In this document: positions 38,892 through 54,037 of the stretch, piece by piece
Numbering within the stretch: position 1 is the first letter of the stretch
Layout: every line of letters begins with the position of its first letter
From: Candidatus Parcubacteria bacterium
GTDB lineage: Bacteria > Patescibacteriota > Saccharimonadia > UBA4664 > JBIOIQ01
Assembly: GCA_963718875.1 (NCBI GenBank)
Contig: OY970378.1
Location: 477,373-541,372 of the forward strand
Reading direction: 5' to 3'
Length of the DNA: 64,000 nucleotides
Position numbers and translations under genes: made by a program
The notes under the pieces: model-generated
Database searches by the model: none
Told to the model about the DNA's origin: nothing
What the model saw: only the letters and a program-made list of their open reading frames with translations

Positions 38892-41237
38892 ATGGCTAGT
38901 ATGAATTTAGAAAGTAATTATTGGCTCAATTTGGCAGTTCGCCAAATTGTACAAAAATACCCGGAAGGTGATTTGGTAGTTTCAAGTGGGATTTCCCCTT
39001 CGGCGTCCTATCATATAGGCCATTTCCGCGAAACACTAACTGCTGATGCTTTAGCTTGGGGTTTGAGGCAGGCTGGGCGCAAAGTTATCCATAAGCACGT
39101 GGTAGATAATTTTGATCCATTGCGTCGCCGCTATGACTTCCTGCCGGAAGAGTATGAGCAGTATGTGGGTTGGCCAATCTGTCTATTGCCCGACCCGTTC
39201 GAGAAATGTATTGATGAGCACAAAACCTACGCCGAGCATTTTTACCGCGAATTTGAGAAGTATGCAGTCGCTATGGGAGTTGGTGGGGAGAAAGAGGAAA
39301 AAGCCGGAAATTTTGTAGCCATCCGCAGTTATGAGCAACTTTACGCCAGTGGCAAGATGGCTCCTCAGATAGAAAAGGTTGTAGATAAAAGTGATCTTAT
39401 TCGTCAAATTTTCAAAGAAGTCTCGAATCGCGATTTGCGTGAGGGGTGGTTGCCGTTACAGCTACTGGGACCAAATAAAAGCTTTAATGAGCTCAAGTTT
39501 AAATCTATCGATGTAGCTGCAAAGATAATAGTTGGAGTTGACGAAAGTGAACACGAGCATAGCCTAGATTACACACGAGGCGAAGTTAAGTTAAACTGGC
39601 GACTAGATTGGCCTGCTCGGTGGCAGATACTTGGTGTCCAAGTGGAGCCATTTGGGGTTCAGGAGCATGGTGCTGCCGGAAGCTCGTATGATACGGGAGT
39701 GGCTTTTAGCGAAAAAGTTTTTGGCTATCCTGCTCCAATGCCAGCCGCGCCTTACGGCAATATTCACCTGCTGGGTGATAATACTAAGATGAGCTCGTCT
39801 AAAGGTAATTTAATCACTCCAGAGCAGGCACTTCAAATAATGCCGGCCGAAATACTCCGATATTTCATTGTCCGAAGCAAGCCTGAGCGGACACTCTATT
39901 TTGATTCCGGGGTTGGACTATTCAACTTAATCGATGAGTTTTCGCAGATTCAAGAGGCCTTATCGAAAGACTTGACACATGAATTTGCTGATGCTTATTA
40001 CTTTGCTACCGCCAATACTACAGCAGAAAAGGTGATCTCAAGTGTGCCGTTTAACCACTTGGTAACGGCATATCAGACCGCTAGAGGTGATTTGAGTCAG
40101 GTCGTGGATATCCTGGCTAGAACAGGCTGGAAGCCGGCTGATAAGGCCGAGGAAGAGGTCTTGGGACGAGAAATCGTCTTTGTCAGTTCCTGGCTGGAGC
40201 GATATGCTCCGGACAGTATAAAGTTTCAAATCCAGCCAAGTTTGCCCAAGGTGCAGTTATCTGATACTCAGAGAGCTTTTTTAGGCCTGTTAGCGGCAGC
40301 GCTAGATAAAGAGGTAATAGCGGATGGTCAAAAAATGCACAATGAAATTTATACGGCTTCTGAAGGGGCTAAAATCAAACCGGCAGAGGCTTTTGAGGCA
40401 CTATATTTGGTGATTCTGAATAAAAAAGCCGGCCCTAAAGCGGGGTGGTTTTTAGCAAGTCTTGAGCACGAGTGGCTGGTGAAGCGATTACGGGAGGCTA
40501 CAGAACAGACTTCGGTGCAATCCGAGGCGGAACCGGTGCAAGATTTGGTGGCTCAGCTTGATCAAGGTAGGCAATTTAAGGTTGAGAGTGATTTGTTGAA
40601 GGCTTTTCCAAATACAGCCATTGGTTATTGCGTGGCGGATATTGAGGTAGAGGGTCGCTCTGATTATGATTTCGAAGGATTAAAATTGGCGCTGGAAATG
40701 GCGGGAGTGACGCTGGATAATATAGCTAATCAACCAGAAATAAAAGCTTGGCGTGAGGCTTACAAGATTTTTGGCGTAAAACCAAGTGATTATCGCAGCT
40801 CGGTCGAGGCATTAGTGAGGCGGGTGTTGGCTGATAAACCTTGGCATGTAAACAGTATTGTAGATACGTATAACGCTGTCTCGGTTAAGTATGTGGTGGC
40901 TATGGGTGCTATGGATTTGGATGAGGCTCATGGGGATATTAATCTTAGATTTGGCAAAGATGGTGAACTGGCTAATTTGATGGGGGTGGAGGAGCCTGTT
41001 GTTGTGAGCTCAAGACAGCCGGTCTATGCTGATGATGAGCAGATTATTACATGGTTGTGGAATTACCGTGACGCGGCAGCTACAGCTGTTACAGCTAAGA
41101 CTAAAAAGGCGGTTTTCTTTATCGATTCGGTGCGAGGGCGAGAGGCTGTTGAGACGGCTTTGAAAGAGCTAGTCAGAGAGCTGGAGCAGAAGCATAGAGC
41201 AAATGTGTTGACTCAAGGGATTCTATCGGCTAGTTAA
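38892..41237 (+). CDS. lysS: class I lysyl-tRNA synthetase fused to a C-terminal B3/4-type tRNA-binding/editing-like domain (~250 aa)
   Basis: HIGH motif (ASYHIGHFRE). KMSKS-like KMSSSKG. The C-terminal segment carries IKAWREAYKIFGVKPSDYRSSVEALVRRVL, characteristic of B3/4 domains. Confidence 0.8.
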   Translation: MASMNLESNYWLNLAVRQIVQKYPEGDLVVSSGISPSASYHIGHFRETLTADALAWGLRQAGRKVIHKHVVDNFDPLRRRYDFLPEEYEQYVGWPICLLPDPFEKCIDEHKTYAEHFYREFEKYAVAMGVGGEKEEKAGNFVAIRSYEQLYASGKMAPQIEKVVDKSDLIRQIFKEVSNRDLREGWLPLQLLGPNKSFNELKFKSIDVAAKIIVGVDESEHEHSLDYTRGEVKLNWRLDWPARWQILGVQVEPFGVQEHGAAGSSYDTGVAFSEKVFGYPAPMPAAPYGNIHLLGDNTKMSSSKGNLITPEQALQIMPAEILRYFIVRSKPERTLYFDSGVGLFNLIDEFSQIQEALSKDLTHEFADAYYFATANTTAEKVISSVPFNHLVTAYQTARGDLSQVVDILARTGWKPADKAEEEVLGREIVFVSSWLERYAPDSIKFQIQPSLPKVQLSDTQRAFLGLLAAALDKEVIADGQKMHNEIYTASEGAKIKPAEAFEALYLVILNKKAGPKAGWFLASLEHEWLVKRLREATEQTSVQSEAEPVQDLVAQLDQGRQFKVESDLLKAFPNTAIGYCVADIEVEGRSDYDFEGLKLALEMAGVTLDNIANQPEIKAWREAYKIFGVKPSDYRSSVEALVRRVLADKPWHVNSIVDTYNAVSVKYVVAMGAMDLDEAHGDINLRFGKDGELANLMGVEEPVVVSSRQPVYADDEQIITWLWNYRDAAATAVTAKTKKAVFFIDSVRGREAVETALKELVRELEQKHRANVLTQGILSAS

Positions 41238-46690: not shown

Positions 46691-47069
46691 TTCTAGCTCT
46701 ACGCTCGGATATCAGATTAGGCACTTTTTTATTTACTTTGCCATTATGGTGAGCGTGATAGTGCTTTTTAAACCTGGTGGCGACGGACCGCTTCCGTTCC
46801 CTCAGGCCGATAAGGTAATTCACGCTTTGACGTTTGCTTTGCTGGCGCTGGGGATGAGGTGGCGAATTCTAAGCTGGAAAGTAATCTTTGTGAGCCTAGC
46901 ATCATATGCCGCATTAAGTGAACTTATTCAGCGTTACTTTGTTCCAGGAAGAGAGTTTGATTTGGTAGATATTACAGCTGATTTGTCGGGCGTGATTTTT
47001 ATCCTGATTTGGGTGATGCTGTCTAAATTGTCATCCCGAGCCGTCGGTCGAAGGACGAGGGAACTATGA
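46679..47069 (+). CDS. VanZ-like family membrane protein
   Basis: DKVIHALTFALLAL...GREFDLVDITADLSG. Confidence 0.7.
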
Positions 47070-47362
47070 AGGAATATAGCGTCTATATCACAACTAATAA
47101 CACAGGCACACTTTATGTGGGTATGACTGGTGACCTGCCACATCGCATGGACCAACATAAGGCGAAAACATTTCCGGGGTTTACCAACAAGTACTGGGTG
47201 GATAAATTGGTATACTTCGAGATGACTTCTGATCCGATCGCTGCAATCTCACGAGAGAAACAACTCAAAGGCTGGCGACGATCGAAAAAGATTAGCTTAA
47301 TAGAATCGATGAATCCTGGCTGGCTAGATCTGTCCATAGATACTTCGGCAGGCTCAGCATGA
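47066..47362 (+). CDS. GIY-YIG nuclease family protein
   Basis: YSVYITTNNTGTLYVGMTGDLPHRMDQHK (GIY-YIG core). Confidence 0.8.
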   Translation: MKEYSVYITTNNTGTLYVGMTGDLPHRMDQHKAKTFPGFTNKYWVDKLVYFEMTSDPIAAISREKQLKGWRRSKKISLIESMNPGWLDLSIDTSAGSA

Positions 47363-49995
47363 CAGGTAAAAAATCTGATATCAAAGAAGGCGTCGTTGGA
47401 GTAAGGGCCGGAGGTATCATGACAGGTCAAAAAGTGGCTATTTTGGGTTTTGGCGTTGAAGGAAAGGCGGCGTATGAATATTGGAATGGCCAAGGGGCTG
47501 AAATTACAATTTGTGATGCCAAAACCGATTTGAAGCTTCCTGGTGGTGTCAAAAGCAATCTTGGGCCAGATTATCTACAAGACCTTGGTTCGTATGACCT
47601 AGTGGTACGCTCCCCAGGAGTGCCATTTTACCAGGTAAAAACGAGTGTGCCTATTACCAGTGTTACCAGGGAGTTCATGGCCAAATGCCCGGCACAGATT
47701 ATCGGGGTTACAGGAACTAAGGGAAAGGGCACAACCGCTACGCTGATTGCAAAGATATTGGAAGCTGATGGGCATAAAGTGTGGTTGGGGGGTAATATTG
47801 GTACGCCAGCTCTTGATTTCCTGGCTTCCGTACAGCCAACAGATTACGTGGTACTAGAGTTATCAAGCTTCCAGCTCGAAGATGTTACACAAAGCCCTCG
47901 GGTAGGAGTTTGCCTGATGATTGCTCCAGATCATCTGGACCACCATCGCCATATGGAGGAGTATATTCAGGCCAAGGGCAACATTTTTCGCTATCAAACC
48001 AAACAAGATGTGGCGGTCTATCATGGTGGCCAGCCTGAAACCGTCAGGTTGGGGCAGCTTTCTGTGGGGAATCACATTCCATACTGTACCCCCGGAGGGG
48101 CTTATATCCGGGACGAGCAGGTGTGGTTTCGCGACCAATCAATTTGCCCTGTGGCGTCGGTTGGATTGTTGGGGAGGCATAATCTGGAAAATGTCTGTGC
48201 GGCGGTGTCGGTTACTTATGGCCTTGTGCGCTCAAAAGAGAGCGTTGCTAGGATGGTCGCTGAGTTCAAAGGCCTGCCGCACCGGCTAGAGGAAGTCGGT
48301 GAGATAAATGGGGTGCGGTTTATCAACGACTCGTTTGCTGCCAATCCGGTTTCGGCAGTGGCGGCATTAAAGGCCTTGTCTGGGCCAAAGGTGGTGATAT
48401 TAGGTGGGTTTGACCGCCATATAGATCAATCTGAGCTTATCCAAACGGTTAAGCATGAGAACGTTCGTCAGGTGGTTTTGGTGGGGCAAACTGCTAAGAA
48501 CCTAGCGGCTTTACTTAAAAGCGAAAACTTTAGCAATTATGAGATGGGCGGGAAAACCATGGCCGAGATTGTTGAGGCTGCCAGTAACCAGGCTAAGCCC
48601 GGTGATACGGTGCTACTTTCTCCCGGAAGCCCAAGTTTTGATATGTTTCAAAATTTTAGTGATAGGGGGAACAAATTTCGGGACGCGGTTAAGCTCCTTG
48701 AGCGACAGCCTGGGGAGTACAATACGTTTATTTTTGAAGGTTACGGCTTTGACCCTGACATAAAGCAACTTGAGCTCAAGTACAGTTTTGATGGTTTGGT
48801 GCAATTTGTCGAGACTTTTAGCTTTGATTTTGAGTTTGCGCCAGACTATGACCAAGCTGCTTTAGAGCGAGCTTGTTTTGGCTTATTTATGATGGCGGGA
48901 GTGTCTTACTATAAGGCGGGTTTACCATCTGAAATTAAGATTCGTCAAGGCAGGCTGTCTCAATCTCAAGCTGATTTTTTTCAAAAGACCTACAGGTTGG
49001 GTTTAGGTGAGTTTTGTTATCGTAACAACTTACCCCTGGTAAAGCTCATGCTCCCAGTTAGCTTAGAAGTGGAGGAAGTAAGTGATATTAATGGTCTTTA
49101 TGGCAGTTTGGTGCCGGTTGGTGGCGGTAAGGACTCGCTAGTAACGATTGAGCTGCTCAGGGAAGCGGGTGAGGATATGGTTACCTGGATGGTCAATCAT
49201 AACGACCAGGTCGAGCCCCTAATAGCTAAAACCGCCCTGCCTCATATGTCGGTAACTAGACAGGTTGCCCCTGAACTGATTAGGCTGAATCAACAAGGGG
49301 CTTTAAACGGTCATGTGCCAATTTCGGCCATTCTTAACTTTGCGGGGGTAATTTCGGCCATCTTATCGGGTAGAGCAAGCCTGGTGTTGTCCAATGAGTG
49401 GTCGGCCGGAGAAGGTAATACCGAATACGAGGGAGTAATGGTCAATCATCAGTATTCAAAAAGCTTTGAGTTTGAGCAGGATTTTCAAGAATATGTAAAA
49501 TCATCGATTTCACCTTCAATTGACGTGTTTTCACTGCTGCGACCGTTGAGTGAGCTCAAAATTGCTGAAACGTTTTGTACTAAACACTTTGATAAATACG
49601 CGGAGGTGTTTTCCTCGTGTAATCGAAATTTTCACCTGGAGGATCATGCTGCTCTGTATTGGTGTGGAGAGTGTCCAAAATGCGCCTTTGTTTTTTTAAT
49701 ATTTTCGCCGTTTTTATCAAAACAAGCCTTAGTCGGCTTGTTTGAGGGTAAAAACTTGTTTGCTTCTGAAGAGCTTGAGCCTACATTTGACGAACTGCTG
49801 GGGCTCTCAGGCCACAAACCCTTTGAGTGTGTAGGTGAAATAAAGGAATGCCGGCAGGCGTTATTAATGGCTAAGGCCAAGGGAGAATACCCTGAACTTG
49901 CTCGCTACAGCTTTCCCGACCCTGAATTTGATTATAAAGAGAAACACTCAAACAATATTCCAGATCAGTTTAAGTCCTTGATTGATAAATTATGA
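47359..49995 (+). CDS. murD: UDP-MurNAc-L-Ala:glutamate ligase (MurD-like) fused to a ~430-aa C-terminal PP-loop-like domain (possible MurD2-MurL-type fusion)
   Basis: N-terminal half: Rossmann GFGVEGKAA, ligase P-loop GVTGTKGKGTT, and a C-terminal ligase domain. C-terminal half: VGGGKDS PP-loop-like motif and WCGECPKC. Confidence 0.75.
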   Translation: MTGKKSDIKEGVVGVRAGGIMTGQKVAILGFGVEGKAAYEYWNGQGAEITICDAKTDLKLPGGVKSNLGPDYLQDLGSYDLVVRSPGVPFYQVKTSVPITSVTREFMAKCPAQIIGVTGTKGKGTTATLIAKILEADGHKVWLGGNIGTPALDFLASVQPTDYVVLELSSFQLEDVTQSPRVGVCLMIAPDHLDHHRHMEEYIQAKGNIFRYQTKQDVAVYHGGQPETVRLGQLSVGNHIPYCTPGGAYIRDEQVWFRDQSICPVASVGLLGRHNLENVCAAVSVTYGLVRSKESVARMVAEFKGLPHRLEEVGEINGVRFINDSFAANPVSAVAALKALSGPKVVILGGFDRHIDQSELIQTVKHENVRQVVLVGQTAKNLAALLKSENFSNYEMGGKTMAEIVEAASNQAKPGDTVLLSPGSPSFDMFQNFSDRGNKFRDAVKLLERQPGEYNTFIFEGYGFDPDIKQLELKYSFDGLVQFVETFSFDFEFAPDYDQAALERACFGLFMMAGVSYYKAGLPSEIKIRQGRLSQSQADFFQKTYRLGLGEFCYRNNLPLVKLMLPVSLEVEEVSDINGLYGSLVPVGGGKDSLVTIELLREAGEDMVTWMVNHNDQVEPLIAKTALPHMSVTRQVAPELIRLNQQGALNGHVPISAILNFAGVISAILSGRASLVLSNEWSAGEGNTEYEGVMVNHQYSKSFEFEQDFQEYVKSSISPSIDVFSLLRPLSELKIAETFCTKHFDKYAEVFSSCNRNFHLEDHAALYWCGECPKCAFVFLIFSPFLSKQALVGLFEGKNLFASEELEPTFDELLGLSGHKPFECVGEIKECRQALLMAKAKGEYPELARYSFPDPEFDYKEKHSNNIPDQFKSLIDKL

Positions 49996-50813
49996 CTTCG
50001 AAACGAGTTGTTATTATAACAGGTGTGTCCCGGGGGATAGGCTTGGCTACGGCTAGGTTGTTTAGCGAGCAGGGCTGGGTAGTGGTGGGAACAGTGCGTA
50101 GCCATCCGTCCAAAGGTGATAATAAAGGCAAAAAATATCCACCTGAGCTGGCGGCTACGGCCATTGATGTGCAGATAGCGGAAATGACTAGTTTGACAGA
50201 TATAGAACGGGTGACAAAAAAAACCTTTACGACCTATGGTCGTATTGACGCTGTAGTGGCAAATGCTGGCTACGGTTTACTGGGGGCCTTGGATACCCTG
50301 GATCATGATCAGATTGTTGATCAAATTGCGGTTAATACTGTGGCTGTAGCTGATCTCGCTCGTGTCGTTTTACCAATTATGCGCAAACAAAAAAATGGTG
50401 TGGTTGTGGCCGTATCGAGCGTGGCGGGTCGTATAGGGTTCCCCGGATATAGCATATACAATGCCAGTAAATTTGCGATTGAGGGCATGTTTGAGGCGCT
50501 CAGCTACGAGGTGGAGGGCAGCGGTATTAGGGTCAAGTTGATAGAGCCGAGTACGGTTAAAACTGATTTTTGGGGTCCGAGCGCTCATTTTAGTAAAATT
50601 GTTAAAAATTACTGGACGCAGCGGACCATGAGACACGCACAGGGAGTTACCCGGGGGCTTTCGAGTGATGGGGTCGCTAAGGTGGTGTATAAAGCCGCAA
50701 CGGATAAAAAAGCTAAATTACACTACCCAGTTGGCTTGACCCGGTGGGGAGTACTGGTAAAGCGTTTTTTACCCGACCGTTGGTTTAGAGGCATTGTTAA
50801 GCGCTTTTTATAA
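49992..50813 (+). CDS. short-chain dehydrogenase/reductase (SDR)
   Basis: TGVSRGIG cofactor motif, NAG, YNASK catalytic motif. Confidence 0.85.
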   Translation: MTSKRVVIITGVSRGIGLATARLFSEQGWVVVGTVRSHPSKGDNKGKKYPPELAATAIDVQIAEMTSLTDIERVTKKTFTTYGRIDAVVANAGYGLLGALDTLDHDQIVDQIAVNTVAVADLARVVLPIMRKQKNGVVVAVSSVAGRIGFPGYSIYNASKFAIEGMFEALSYEVEGSGIRVKLIEPSTVKTDFWGPSAHFSKIVKNYWTQRTMRHAQGVTRGLSSDGVAKVVYKAATDKKAKLHYPVGLTRWGVLVKRFLPDRWFRGIVKRFL

Positions 50814-51300: not shown

Positions 51301-51512
51301 ACAAATCTAATACAAAATACTTGCTTCGCATTAACCTGCAAGCAGTTATTGTTTCGTTAACTAGGGGAGACCTATGATGTTAGCGAAACGTTATCTGCTT
51401 GCATGAAACTGTGCAAGCGAGGATTCGACACTTAGTCGAATTCAGTTGCTCTACCGAACATACAGAAACCACAGACCAGGGTGAGAACTCTGGCAGAGCA
51501 AAGGAAAAGACC

Positions 51513-52448
51513 ATGTCCGACCAGACCGGAGGACCCGGTACCACCGCCCCACCCCGCCGACCCACGCTCCAGGAGCTCGCCGACCAGGCGAGAGCCACGA
51601 TCGAGGAGCAGGCTCGACAGGCGAATGACCTCCAGGGTCAGCGCTCCGCCATCAACGCGATCAGCGGTCGAGTGGCGCAGCACGACGACGCCATCGCTGA
51701 CCTCCGGGACGCTTCGGCCCAGCAGGCCGACGCCGTGGACCGCCTCGGCCAGCGCACGCTGGTGGTCGAGGGACGCACGGACTCGTTGGAGGACTTGGCT
51801 CGCGCCAACGCCGCCGGCGTGGCCGGGCTGACCGCCAACATGGCTGACCTGACCACCAACGTCAACACGCTGGCCACCACGGTGGGCCAGCACGACACCC
51901 GTCTCGACGCCGTCGAGGACGCCGTGACGCCGGCCGCTATGCGGACGGTCGTCACCGAGGTGGTCGAGGAGCGCATGCGCGCTGTTCGGTTCAACTGGGT
52001 GGCCTTCGCCGTGGTGGCGATCGTGGGCTTCATCATCGACCTGTTGGTGTTCTCCGAGATGGGGAGCTTCAACAGCGCCGAGGCGCCGAAGCTCTCCAAG
52101 CACCTCACGGACGTCATGCACACGCAGAACTTCCTGGCCGTCATGCTCGTTGTCCTGGCCCTCGCCATACTCATCGCCCTCATCGTTCCGGTGGTCGGGC
52201 AGGACGAGCGTCCCAGGCAGGACCGCCAGCCCAGGCCGCCTCGGCAGCCCGGATCCGGCGGTGGTTTCATGGCCGGTCTTCGCAACGTTTGGAGGAGGGG
52301 TCGCGGTACGCCCGCTGCCACTGCGCCCATCCCGGCCAACTCCACGCCGGTGGCGACGACGAACCCGTCGGCCTCGTCCAACGCGCCCACTCAGGTGCTG
52401 CCGGCGGTGCCGACGTCCGGTCCGACGCCCTCATCGGGCAACCCGTAG
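51513..52448 (+). CDS. GC-rich (~68%) foreign gene: coiled-coil membrane protein with two TM helices and a Pro/Ser/Thr-rich tail
   Basis: AGGAAAAG precedes the ATG. GC3 ~90%. Ala/Asp-rich heptad-like N-terminal region, then two hydrophobic helices. The overlapping antisense ORFs are GC-shadow ORFs. Confidence 0.6.
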   Translation: MSDQTGGPGTTAPPRRPTLQELADQARATIEEQARQANDLQGQRSAINAISGRVAQHDDAIADLRDASAQQADAVDRLGQRTLVVEGRTDSLEDLARANAAGVAGLTANMADLTTNVNTLATTVGQHDTRLDAVEDAVTPAAMRTVVTEVVEERMRAVRFNWVAFAVVAIVGFIIDLLVFSEMGSFNSAEAPKLSKHLTDVMHTQNFLAVMLVVLALAILIALIVPVVGQDERPRQDRQPRPPRQPGSGGGFMAGLRNVWRRGRGTPAATAPIPANSTPVATTNPSASSNAPTQVLPAVPTSGPTPSSGNP

Positions 52449-52518
52449 TCCACGCGGTTCTTCAAGTGGATTGTCCCAATTCAAATACCTCCTAGCGTCA
52501 AGCAAAGAGGGAACAACC

Positions 52519-52549
52519 CTCTGTCCGCCCTTCGGGGCGGACAGAGGAG
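52519..52549 (+). terminator. 13-bp perfect hairpin (cctctgtccgccc-ttcg-gggcggacagagg)
   Basis: Seen directly, between the two island genes. Confidence 0.55.
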
Positions 52550-52647
52550 CAACTTTTACTTCCATGGATAGTAGTCCGCGTGAGAAGCAATTCTTACTCG
52601 GTTTCTGTTCATGGTGCAATCGGCACCCAAACGATAAGGAGGGTGCC

Positions 52648-53826
52648 ATGAGCACCAGAAGAGGTCCTGTTCTGATCATCGTGTGTCTGCTGATGGCAGC
52701 GGGGGCTTTGCTGTTCAAGTACGGCAACGGCCCAACGCCGGCAGTGGCACAGACGCCGCCCACGGTGCCCGTTTCGGACGTCTGCAAGGACGTCCCGGGC
52801 AACGTGCCGAGGTGGTTTGCCAAGGAGACCGACGGCAACAAGTTCGGTCCGGCGGCTCCGTTTGACCTTGGTCCCGCCAGGAAGGCTCAGCACGAGGTCC
52901 TGTGCCTCGACCCGGCCAACCTGGTGATCACCCAGGAGACCATCGACGGGAAGTTCAGCAGTCCGGCAAACCGGGCTGCCCGGACTCGCGTTCTCGTTGC
53001 CAACCCCACTGCGCGGTTGGCAGCGGTGGCCTATGTGCAGGCAGAGTTGGCCAAGGCCAAGGAGGTTCGGCTGGAGGTCCACACGGGACCCTACCAGACC
53101 TTCTACATGACCACCGACGGCGACGTGCCGGAGGTGTTCCAGTCTGCAGGGAGCTTCACCGAGGCACGGCACGTTCTCGTGTACGACTTCGGTAACGGTC
53201 GCACGGTCAACTTCGTACTGGAGTGCAACTTCCAGGGGGAGTTCCCCGGGCCGGTCAAGAACGTGCCGGTGGCAACGCCGGGCACTGTGCCGGCGCTGGT
53301 TCAGCCGGGGCCCACCAGCCCGCCGCCGACGACGTGCCAGTCGACCAACACCTGTTCGACCGTGACCAGCCCACCGCCCGTGTGCTGCGGACCGCCCCCG
53401 ACGACGTGTCAGGTCAACTGCGGTCCGCCCCCGACGACGTGTCAGGTCAACTGCGGTCCGCCGCCGACGACGTGTCAGGTCAACTGCGGTCCGCCGCCGA
53501 CGACGTGTCAGGTCAACTGCGGTCCGCCGCCGACCGTTTGCACACACAAGTGCGCGGGAGAGGACGTTGCGGTCAGTCCGAGTCTGGATCCTGTCGTTTC
53601 GGGACTGGCTGCGGGCAATGCCGCACCCACTGCGGTGGCAACACCGGTCGTGACGGCGCCTCCGGCGCCGCCTCCGCCCGTGACCACAGCCACGCCACCC
53701 GTGACGGCTCTGCCGTCCTCCGATGGCGTGGCAGCTCCACCGCCTGTAGTGGCTCCACCGTACGTGGCGCCCGATGCGGGCACTCCGTCCAACCCGACGA
53801 CGGGAACCATTCCGCCGCCGCCGTAG
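52648..53826 (+). CDS. GC-rich foreign gene: secreted/membrane-anchored protein with five CGPPPTTCQVN Cys-containing tandem repeats and a Pro-rich tail
   Basis: AAGGAGGG Shine-Dalgarno precedes the ATG at 52648. N-terminal hydrophobic signal/anchor. Repeats of 33 bp at 53386-53553. Confidence 0.6.
   Translation: MSTRRGPVLIIVCLLMAAGALLFKYGNGPTPAVAQTPPTVPVSDVCKDVPGNVPRWFAKETDGNKFGPAAPFDLGPARKAQHEVLCLDPANLVITQETIDGKFSSPANRAARTRVLVANPTARLAAVAYVQAELAKAKEVRLEVHTGPYQTFYMTTDGDVPEVFQSAGSFTEARHVLVYDFGNGRTVNFVLECNFQGEFPGPVKNVPVATPGTVPALVQPGPTSPPPTTCQSTNTCSTVTSPPPVCCGPPPTTCQVNCGPPPTTCQVNCGPPPTTCQVNCGPPPTTCQVNCGPPPTVCTHKCAGEDVAVSPSLDPVVSGLAAGNAAPTAVATPVVTAPPAPPPPVTTATPPVTALPSSDGVAAPPPVVAPPYVAPDAGTPSNPTTGTIPPPP
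53386..53553 (+). repeat. 33-bp tandem repeat x5 (ggtccgcc[c/g]ccgacgacgtgtcaggtcaactgc) encoding GPPPTTCQVNC
   Basis: Four near-identical copies plus one degenerate copy, seen directly. Confidence 0.85.
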
Positions 53827-54037
53827 GACACCACTTCTGCCCATTCGGGCAGGGGTCTACCCCAGGGTCTGGGGTGGTGCGCAAGCGCCACCCCGCCCTG
53901 TGGGTATACATATTCTTAATGATTTTGGATTATTCGATTGCTCCAAGGGTTAGTGCCCTTTAACATTTAGCGTCCAACTTAACTTGTAGATCATATTAAA
54001 TTCATTTTAACGTTCATTATTTAAAAGGAGAGCACAT

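Follow-up and report, generated by a model that had tools for sequence, protein, structure and literature searches.

A predicted fusion of a MurD2-like ligase and the epimerase MurL in a bacterium of the candidate phyla radiation

In a 64-kb stretch of contig OY970378.1 from Candidatus Parcubacteria bacterium (hereafter, the window), a single open reading frame (ORF) joins a MurD-type ligase to MurL, an epimerase that acts on a peptidoglycan precursor. We think it likely, given the sequence evidence below, that this fusion of murD2-like and murL genes encodes a bifunctional enzyme of peptidoglycan precursor synthesis; both activities are predicted. The MurD2/MurL pathway is known, but the fused architecture is undescribed: literature searches found no description of a fused MurD2-MurL protein, or of MurL in bacteria of the candidate phyla radiation (CPR), and the only papers on the pathway that they retrieved, two reviews from the Dairi group, are silent on both fusions and the CPR (PMC8788868, PMC5808125).

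In the mechanism that we propose, the ligase half would join L-glutamate onto UDP-MurNAc-L-Ala, converting ATP to ADP via an acyl-phosphate, as expected from homology. Homology and the published biochemistry of MurL suggest that the MurL half would then use a second ATP, releasing AMP, to adenylate the terminal L-Glu at its alpha-carboxylate. Adenylation would acidify the alpha-proton; the residue would be epimerized in one direction only, and the adenylate would then be hydrolyzed. D-Glu would thus be formed on the precursor, so that free D-Glu and a glutamate racemase would be unnecessary. The fusion would keep the ligase and the epimerase at a ratio of 1:1, and it may favor the hand-over of the L-Glu intermediate.

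The C-terminal half is MurL, as the earlier note on this DNA had proposed by resemblance. A profile search matched this half (E = 2.7e-115, residues 454 to 845, profile positions 7 to 400 of 447) to NF041275, which is NCBIfam's model of MurL (UDP-N-acetyl-alpha-D-muramoyl-L-alanyl-L-glutamate epimerase) and is named MurL_Xanthmoales. In addition, the Pfam families PF26299 (MurL_N) and PF26298 (MurL_epimerase_C) have precomputed matches on an identical database protein, P0001, and on its relatives. Our local, older copy of Pfam reported no MurL family in the fusion or in 45 relatives; it appears not to contain these models. The MurL half comprises the MurL_N beta-sheet domain, a Rossmann-like core with the PP-loop, and a cysteine-rich helical region at the C terminus.

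We computed the conservation of motifs over 429 MurL domains from the CPR, Proteobacteria, Actinobacteria, and Bacillota. The fusion has all of the motifs of the family ([G/S]GGKDS, NGH, NHQYSK, SSCN, CxxC, and ECVGE), each of which is at least 93% conserved. The PP-loop-like VGGGKDS reported in the earlier note lies at residues 587 to 593, and its core, [G/S]GGKDS, is over 99% conserved, with the canonical SGGKDS in 43 of the 429 domains. The CxxCxxC cluster that the note also reported is present (CGECPKC, residues 769 to 775), but it is not quite the conserved unit: C754, C772, C775, and C824 are each over 99% conserved, while C769, the opening cysteine of CxxCxxC, is 93% conserved and is replaced by Asp in 6% of the domains. 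H652, H697, Q698, K701, E706, and R728 are near-invariant. The spacing of the cysteines (C754-x14-C769-x2-C772-x2-C775) resembles that of the zinc site of QueC, which suggests that the cluster binds a metal in a structural role. Candidates for acid/base catalysis are C824, H652, H697, and K701, although C824 may instead be an additional ligand of the metal.

An AlphaFold2 model of the MurL half (predicted local distance difference test [pLDDT] of 94.4, predicted TM-score [pTM] of 0.94) places GGGKDS, which is residues 138 to 143 of the modeled half, between a strand (131 to 136) and a helix (141 to 152) of the Rossmann-like core. When this model was compared to the PDB with Foldseek, the best matches were all PP-loop ATP pyrophosphatases: QueC (2pg3, E = 2.2e-4, probability of 1.00, TM-score of 0.61 by target; 3bl5, TM-score of 0.64), Cap9 (9nto_B, TM-score of 0.66, rmsd [root mean square deviation] of 3.7), TtuA, argininosuccinate synthase, and GMP synthetase. 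These enzymes share with the MurL half a nucleotide-binding core fold and a loop of the SGGxDS type; they also form an adenylated intermediate while converting ATP to AMP, as the MurL half presumably does.

Such matches, together with the PP-loop motif and the cysteine cluster, are also what would be expected if the C-terminal half were an unrelated PP-loop enzyme, similar to QueC or to a tRNA thiolase, that was joined to MurD by chance. We sought such a family and found no match in Pfam at the sequence level, so the match to an unrelated PP-loop family that the earlier note had named as part of a refutation did not appear. Specifically, when 45 members of the family were searched against the PP-loop families of Pfam, including QueC, at E values of up to 10, just one matched, to PF01171 (ATP_bind_3) with E = 0.24, and no QueC profile appeared among the Pfam matches or among the 25 of 28 NCBIfam matches listed for the fusion protein. 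The structural similarity is limited to the core (the TM-score is 0.34 when normalized by query), whereas the MurL model matches end to end, and the homologs are consistently linked to murD. MurL also differs from the PP-loop enzymes in carrying an additional beta domain at the N terminus and a helical region at the C terminus, in its substrate (the carboxylate of a UDP-muramyl dipeptide), and in the outcome, which is epimerization. With the MurL profile, the Pfam domains, and the linkage to murD, the unrelated PP-loop identity is effectively refuted, and we give it almost no weight. Thus, the profile, Pfam, motif, and fold results identify the C-terminal half as MurL, a divergent PP-loop enzyme. 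A sequence search of the PDB with the MurL half gave zero matches at E values of up to 10, so a structure of MurL is not detectable there by sequence. The reviews credit MurL with "no known conserved domains" and report that it uses one ATP and releases AMP; the PP-loop fold agrees with this stoichiometry (PMC8788868, PMC5808125).

The N-terminal half is a Mur ligase of the MurD type, as the earlier note had also concluded. It matches TIGR01087 (murD, from NCBIfam) over residues 25 to 445 with 354 bits, compared to a cutoff of 212. Mur_ligase_M (PF08245) and Mur_ligase_C (PF02875) are above their Pfam cutoffs within residues 25 to 422, MurD-like_N (PF21799) is below threshold (22.5 bits versus a cutoff of 27), and MurD chains in the PDB match with E values from 1e-62 to 1e-42. 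The layout is that of an N-terminal Rossmann-like domain, a central ATPase domain, and a C-terminal domain. The catalytic residues of Escherichia coli MurD (K115, N138, E157, H183, and the carbamylated K198) are all kept, with the signature KNE-x-HK.

We then considered which enantiomer of glutamate the ligase half uses. MurD2 from Xanthomonas oryzae has E197, R358, P433, and F435 where E. coli MurD has D182, K348, A414, and L416; the E197D/R358K double mutant of MurD2 switched completely to D-Glu, and mutation of P433 and F435 did not change the specificity (PMC8788868). In our alignment, the fusion ligase has D191, R353, P425, and F427 at these positions, and F326 at E. coli K319. (Below, we number positions as in E. 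coli MurD.) The residue at position 348 follows the genetic partner of the ligase. Arg348 is found in 158 of the 161 MurDs that are linked to MurL (by fusion, as neighbors, or at another place in the locus), and all five of the racemase-linked Saccharibacteria-type MurDs have Lys348 (Fisher's exact test, p = 5.7e-8, without correction for phylogeny). These five are a MurI-MurD fusion (P0120) and four MurDs (P0104, P0108, P0099, and P0090) whose genes are convergent to an Asp_Glu_race gene. Two standalone MurDs with Arg348 whose loci we looked up, P0084 and P0101, each have murL directly downstream. We conclude that the fusion ligase probably adds L-Glu.

The exceptions to Arg348 are L070, from a Saccharibacteria metagenome-assembled genome (MAG) in which murD adjoins murL, with Lys; L006, with Ser; and P0030, a MurL-MurD fusion, with Thr. 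P0030 additionally has Ala at position 182. To check the alignment, we looked at a MurD from Lysobacterales that is encoded beside murL: it has E182, R348, and P414, but it has Y416 where MurD2 of X. oryzae has Phe. The four convergent MurDs with Lys348 (loci L085 to L088) lie tail-to-tail with Asp_Glu_race and have a folD-like gene within one to two genes, an arrangement that is kept in four separate assemblies.

Two other positions were rejected as markers. Position 182 is Asp in 27 of the 161 MurL-linked MurDs, and racemase-linked MurDs from the CPR have Glu; because both states cross the linkage to MurL or racemase, this position does not discriminate in the lineage, and Glu or Asp there fails as a classifier of the ligase. 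Similarly, a residue other than Lys at position 319 is not a marker for MurD2, as the racemase-linked MurDs from the CPR likewise have Phe.

Several points weigh against the reading of the fusion as an L-Glu ligase coupled to its epimerase. First, for the MurL half, the score of NF041275 is 385 bits, which is under NCBI's equivalog cutoff of 700; this cutoff is presumably tuned to the Xanthomonadales. This half is just 39 to 40% identical to the MurLs of a Lysobacterales MAG (L078) and of an Actinoplanes sp. (L069), which represent an order or genus for which MurL activity or presence has been reported. To our knowledge, no MurL from the CPR and no fused form has been characterized biochemically. 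Second, in the full-length model, the domains are well folded (pLDDT of 90.2), but the pTM is 0.58. With that value, the model does not show how the halves are placed relative to each other, as we had thought it might, and it gives no support for channeling. Third, position 182 of the ligase is Asp, as in E. coli MurD, instead of the Glu of X. oryzae MurD2, and E197D alone altered the stereospecificity of the latter enzyme (PMC8788868). Fourth, in a rough neighbor-joining ordering, the ligase groups with the Saccharibacteria-type MurDs, which have Phe319 and some of which have Lys348, and lies apart from the clade of proteobacterial and actinobacterial MurD2s, which have Ile or Leu at 319. Given this placement, the change between Lys348 and Arg348 seems to have occurred within closely related ligases. 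Finally, our search for murI in this organism covered the 64-kb window, and the title of a reference in PMC11974145 indicates that glutamate racemase is active in some Saccharibacteria. The view of the earlier note that the ligase is MurD2-like is sustained by Arg348, Pro414, and Phe416, and not by Asp182 or by the placement in the tree.

An alternative explanation is that the ligase is an ordinary MurD that adds D-Glu, which is supplied by a racemase encoded elsewhere, and that MurL repairs or salvages precursors with misincorporated L-Glu or acts on some other substrate. D191, the clustering with MurDs that include racemase-linked Lys348 forms, the extent of our racemase search, and that title on the Saccharibacteria would all fit this explanation. 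Also, streptococcal MurD has Arg348 yet uses D-Glu (seen in our alignment for Streptococcus agalactiae and reported for S. mutans in PMC8788868). However, Arg348 is present in nearly all of the MurL-linked MurDs and in none of the five racemase-linked ones, and a racemase gene adjoins all four of the Lys348 MurDs examined. No MurI-like ORF was found in the window or in any of 80 MurL loci; this search was for MurI and did not extend to D-amino-acid transaminase. The recurrence of the fusion, in both orders, also argues for obligate coupling. Overall, we consider an ordinary D-Glu ligase to be unlikely, and we favor an L-Glu ligase that is coupled to MurL.

The gene arose by the in-frame joining of adjacent murD2-like and murL genes. 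The nearest relatives of the MurL half are standalone MurLs with about 65% identity (P0124 to P0126) and a fused protein, P0002. In unfused relatives, MurD ends in AV(x)(x)L and a stop codon, and MurL opens with M(x)(x)Y(x)(x)F(x)F. The fusion has these same boundaries, with six residues in between (Table 1). The 18-nt linker contains no ATG, GTG, or TTG in any frame, nor is there one in the frame of MurL just 5' of it, even with a hypothetical deletion of a single T; we had looked for a surviving remnant of the stop or start codon, but none is recognizable. The order of genes in the window is PBP2-GreA-LysRS-SerRS-HPF-SecA-VanZ-GIY-YIG-[fusion]-SDR. In the locus of the unfused P0124, which is 66% identical over the MurL part, the order is SerRS-HPF-SecA-VanZ-MurD (428 amino acids)-MurL (432 amino acids)-SDR, and murD and murL overlap by 4 nt. 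In the locus of P0002, the order is PBP2-GreA-LysRS-x-SerRS-HPF-SecA-NUDIX-[fusion, 852 amino acids]-SDR, and that fusion is 63% identical to ours. Given this shared synteny, the fusion occupies the exact place of the two-gene operon of its relatives.

The closeness of the two genes in the nearest unfused relatives raises the concern that the fusion is an artifact, in which an indel or a base error in sequencing or assembly merged overlapping murD and murL genes; furthermore, the database contains just one copy of this protein, on one contig of 1.19 Mb (P0001, which is identical to the product of our ORF). A single substitution could not have fused the genes, because the 4-nt overlap puts the genes of the unfused relative in different frames. 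Also, the junction is a clean, in-frame linker of six codons. P0002 is fused as well, with another linker (GQT), and is present in both an ENA assembly and a Logan assembly, although these may derive from the same reads. There are dozens more fusions, each with a distinct linker, such as NP in P0003 and KQGGR in P0007. Given the clean junction, the fused relative, and the distinct linkers elsewhere, an artifact is very unlikely.

The annotated start codon, an ATG that overlaps the stop codon of the upstream ORF, is probably not the true start. The N termini of homologs align at the equivalent of M21 (by alignment consensus), M21 is preceded by a Shine-Dalgarno sequence (GGAGG), and residues 1 to 20 are the sole low-confidence stretch in the full-length AlphaFold model (pLDDT below 50). 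Since all three point to M21, the first 20 residues are probably outside the real protein, which would have 858 residues. A 16-nt near-repeat, CATGACAGGTNAAAAA, is found at both the annotated start and the probable true start. This could be a duplication left by the insertion of a cassette with the adjacent GIY-YIG gene.

Table 1. Positions in the window of the fusion gene, its parts, and neighboring features
Feature	Position	Strand	Basis or remark
MurD-MurL fusion ORF, whole	47359..49995	+	878 codons and a stop, without an internal stop
Shine-Dalgarno sequence GGAGG	47410..47414		Just 5' of the probable true start
Probable true start codon, M21	47419..47421	+	GGAGG just 5'
MurD-type Mur ligase half, residues 22 to 447	47422..48699	+	Pfam PF08245, PF02875, PF21799; TIGR01087; MurD chains in the PDB
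P-loop GTKGKGT, ATP-binding; K123 is E. coli MurD K115	47713..47733	+	Alignment to E. coli MurD
PDHLD motif; D191 and H192 are E. coli D182 and H183	47926..47940	+	Alignment; PMC8788868
GGFDR motif; R353 is E. coli K348 and X. oryzae MurD2 R358	48403..48417	+	Alignment; PMC8788868
SPGSPSF motif; P425, S426, and F427 are E. coli A414, S415, and L416	48619..48639	+	Alignment
Linker ERQPGE, six residues	48700..48717	+	Between AVKLL, where MurD ends, and YNTFIFEGY, where MurL starts
MurL half, residues 454 to 878	48718..49992	+	NF041275; Pfam on P0001; AlphaFold; Foldseek
PP-loop motif GGGKDS, residues 588 to 593	49120..49137	+	Strand-helix junction in the model
SSC754N ... C769-G-E-C772-P-K-C775	49612..49683	+	Spacing C-x14-C-x2-C-x2-C; putative metal site
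CGECPKC (CxxCxxC)	49663..49683		Residues 769 to 775
ECVGE motif with C824	49825..49839	+	Candidate catalytic residue or further metal ligand
Near-repeat, first copy	47358..47373		At the annotated start
Near-repeat, second copy	47418..47433		At the probable true start
Class-I LysRS	38892..41237	+	Archaeal-type, 781 amino acids
GIY-YIG nuclease-domain ORF	47066..47362	+	98 amino acids; Pfam E = 6.8e-14
SDR-family oxidoreductase	49992..50813	+	4-nt overlap with the stop codon of the fusion
GC-rich region	51399..53963		GC content of 0.56

The earlier note suggested that the two activities are fused in some taxa, and this turned out to be so, with both orders of the domains. Among 243 retrieved proteins, 26 are MurD-MurL fusions, 68 are MurL-MurD fusions, 120 are standalone MurLs, and 29 are MurDs without a MurL domain. 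In a rough neighbor-joining tree of MurL domains, the MurD-MurL fusions lie at three or more separate places, beside unfused relatives. The MurL-MurD fusions (P0025 to P0083 and P0096), which are found in Peribacteria, Parcubacteria, Moranbacteria, Daviesbacteria, Bacillota, and others, have the same two domains and Arg348. They differ from our fusion in that the order is reversed, the ligase belongs to another subgroup of MurD2 (with Ile or Leu at 319), and the fusion event was independent. Judged by their Pfam matches, P0107 and P0115 seem to combine MurD with MurB-like domains.

When we scanned the genomes of GTDB species with the MurL profile, we found at least 597 loci, the best of which has 53% identity. 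Among the best 80 of these, murD adjoins murL on the same strand in 62: murD comes first in 22 loci, essentially all of which are from Saccharibacteria, and murL comes first in 40, from Alphaproteobacteria, Gammaproteobacteria, Gracilibacteria, Peribacteria, and others. Six of the best 80 encode MurL-MurD fusions and none encodes a MurD-MurL fusion. When 1.84 billion cluster representatives were searched exhaustively with the profile, 3443 clusters of MurL (at 50% identity) had E ≤ 1e-3, and 1523 had E ≤ 1e-30. Of the 150 best cluster representatives, 18 have the length of a fusion (4 MurD-MurL and 14 MurL-MurD).

The closest counterparts of the fusion gene are the murD-murL operons of Saccharibacteria (L001 to L021 and P0124), which share its gene order, the synteny from SerRS-HPF-SecA-VanZ to SDR, 45 to 66% identity, and the residue signature [E/D]-H-K-F-R-[A/P]-S-F. 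In the operons, however, there are two genes, which overlap by 4 nt in P0124, P0084, and P0101, whereas the fusion has lost the stop codon and gained the linker. The system of X. oryzae consists of the same two families in tight linkage; the PP-loop and cysteines of MurL are kept in the fusion, as are the Arg, Pro, and Phe at positions 358, 433, and 435 of MurD2. Unlike that system, the fusion is one polypeptide, with the ligase and then the epimerase, and it has Asp at the position of E197. In the Lysobacterales relative of Xanthomonas (L078), by contrast, murL is upstream of murD, and its MurL is only about 39% identical to ours. The MurD2s of Proteobacteria and Actinobacteria have Ile or Leu at position 319, while the fusion ligase has Phe, as in Saccharibacteria. 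The host is a small-genome, CPR-like bacterium, which its nearest relatives and its synteny suggest is similar to Saccharibacteria, and is outside the taxa that the reviews list for MurD2 and MurL. The MurI-MurD fusion and the four MurD/murI pairs described above resemble our fusion in that MurD is physically coupled to a supplier of D-Glu, and the MurD of P0090 is about 41% identical to the fusion ligase. However, their partner is a PLP (pyridoxal phosphate)-independent Asp/Glu racemase that yields free D-Glu, and their ligases have Lys348.

The window is rich in genes for the cell wall and for division, including those for FtsA, FtsZ, RodA/FtsW, an LCP transferase, MreBCD, PBP2, FtsEX, a PcsB-like protein, and a Ctp protease, which implies that this organism makes peptidoglycan. 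Nearly all of the genes are on the + strand; the GC skew is strongly positive and the cumulative skew rises almost monotonically. A scan of the window with Rfam found no family at the gathering threshold, including tRNA.

The LysRS encoded in the window is a class-I enzyme and lies at the same position as in the syntenic locus of P0002; the family model covers residues 10 to 535, which leaves a C-terminal extension of about 245 residues. The small GIY-YIG ORF lies between a VanZ-like gene and the fusion; at its position, P0124 has nothing and P0002 has a NUDIX gene. The SDR gene is directly 3' of murL in P0124 and P0002 as well, but not in more distant Saccharibacteria. Further downstream is a region of high GC content (the window is otherwise at about 0.45), which has many overlapping spurious ORFs on both strands. 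This region seems to encode two proteins without a family match. One is rich in Ala, Thr, and Pro and includes a hydrophobic stretch; the other, which looks secreted (MSTRRGPVLIIVCLL...), carries the repeat CGPPPTTCQVN five times in tandem, and its tail is rich in Pro. The region may be a horizontally acquired island.

In public databases, those fused proteins that have a name are labeled as "UDP-N-acetylmuramoylalanine--D-glutamate ligase," and most are unnamed. NCBI calls several standalone MurLs (P0128, P0152, P0178, and P0227) "endonuclease domain-containing protein," while JGI calls other standalone homologs of MurL the epimerase. The endonuclease label and the ligase label of the fused proteins are probably systematic misannotations, and both conceal the route by which many uncultivated bacteria are supplied with D-Glu.

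The fusion does not change the known chemistry of peptidoglycan synthesis: it is a variant of a known two-enzyme pathway, and one that is well represented but poorly labeled in databases. As natural "Rosetta-stone" evidence, it indicates that L-Glu ligase and epimerase function as an obligate pair, and the QueC-like PP-loop fold provides a structural basis for the conversion of ATP to AMP by MurL. The reviews confine the MurD2/MurL route to a few genera and propose it as a narrow-spectrum drug target (PMC8788868, PMC5808125). The 3443 clusters and the at least 597 matches in GTDB weaken the notion of a pathway that is restricted to a few pathogens. More broadly, we lean slightly towards the view that this route is a major source of D-Glu in Saccharibacteria, other CPR bacteria, many Alphaproteobacteria, Bacillota, and others; that it has been fused several times independently, in both orders; and that position 348 is a specificity switch among closely related MurDs of Saccharibacteria. 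The association of Lys at this position with a racemase, and of Arg with MurL, amounts to a simple, testable rule for reading the stereospecificity of the ligase from its sequence. If this view is correct, then residue 348 (Lys with a racemase, Arg with MurL) would predict whether a ligase uses D-Glu or L-Glu.

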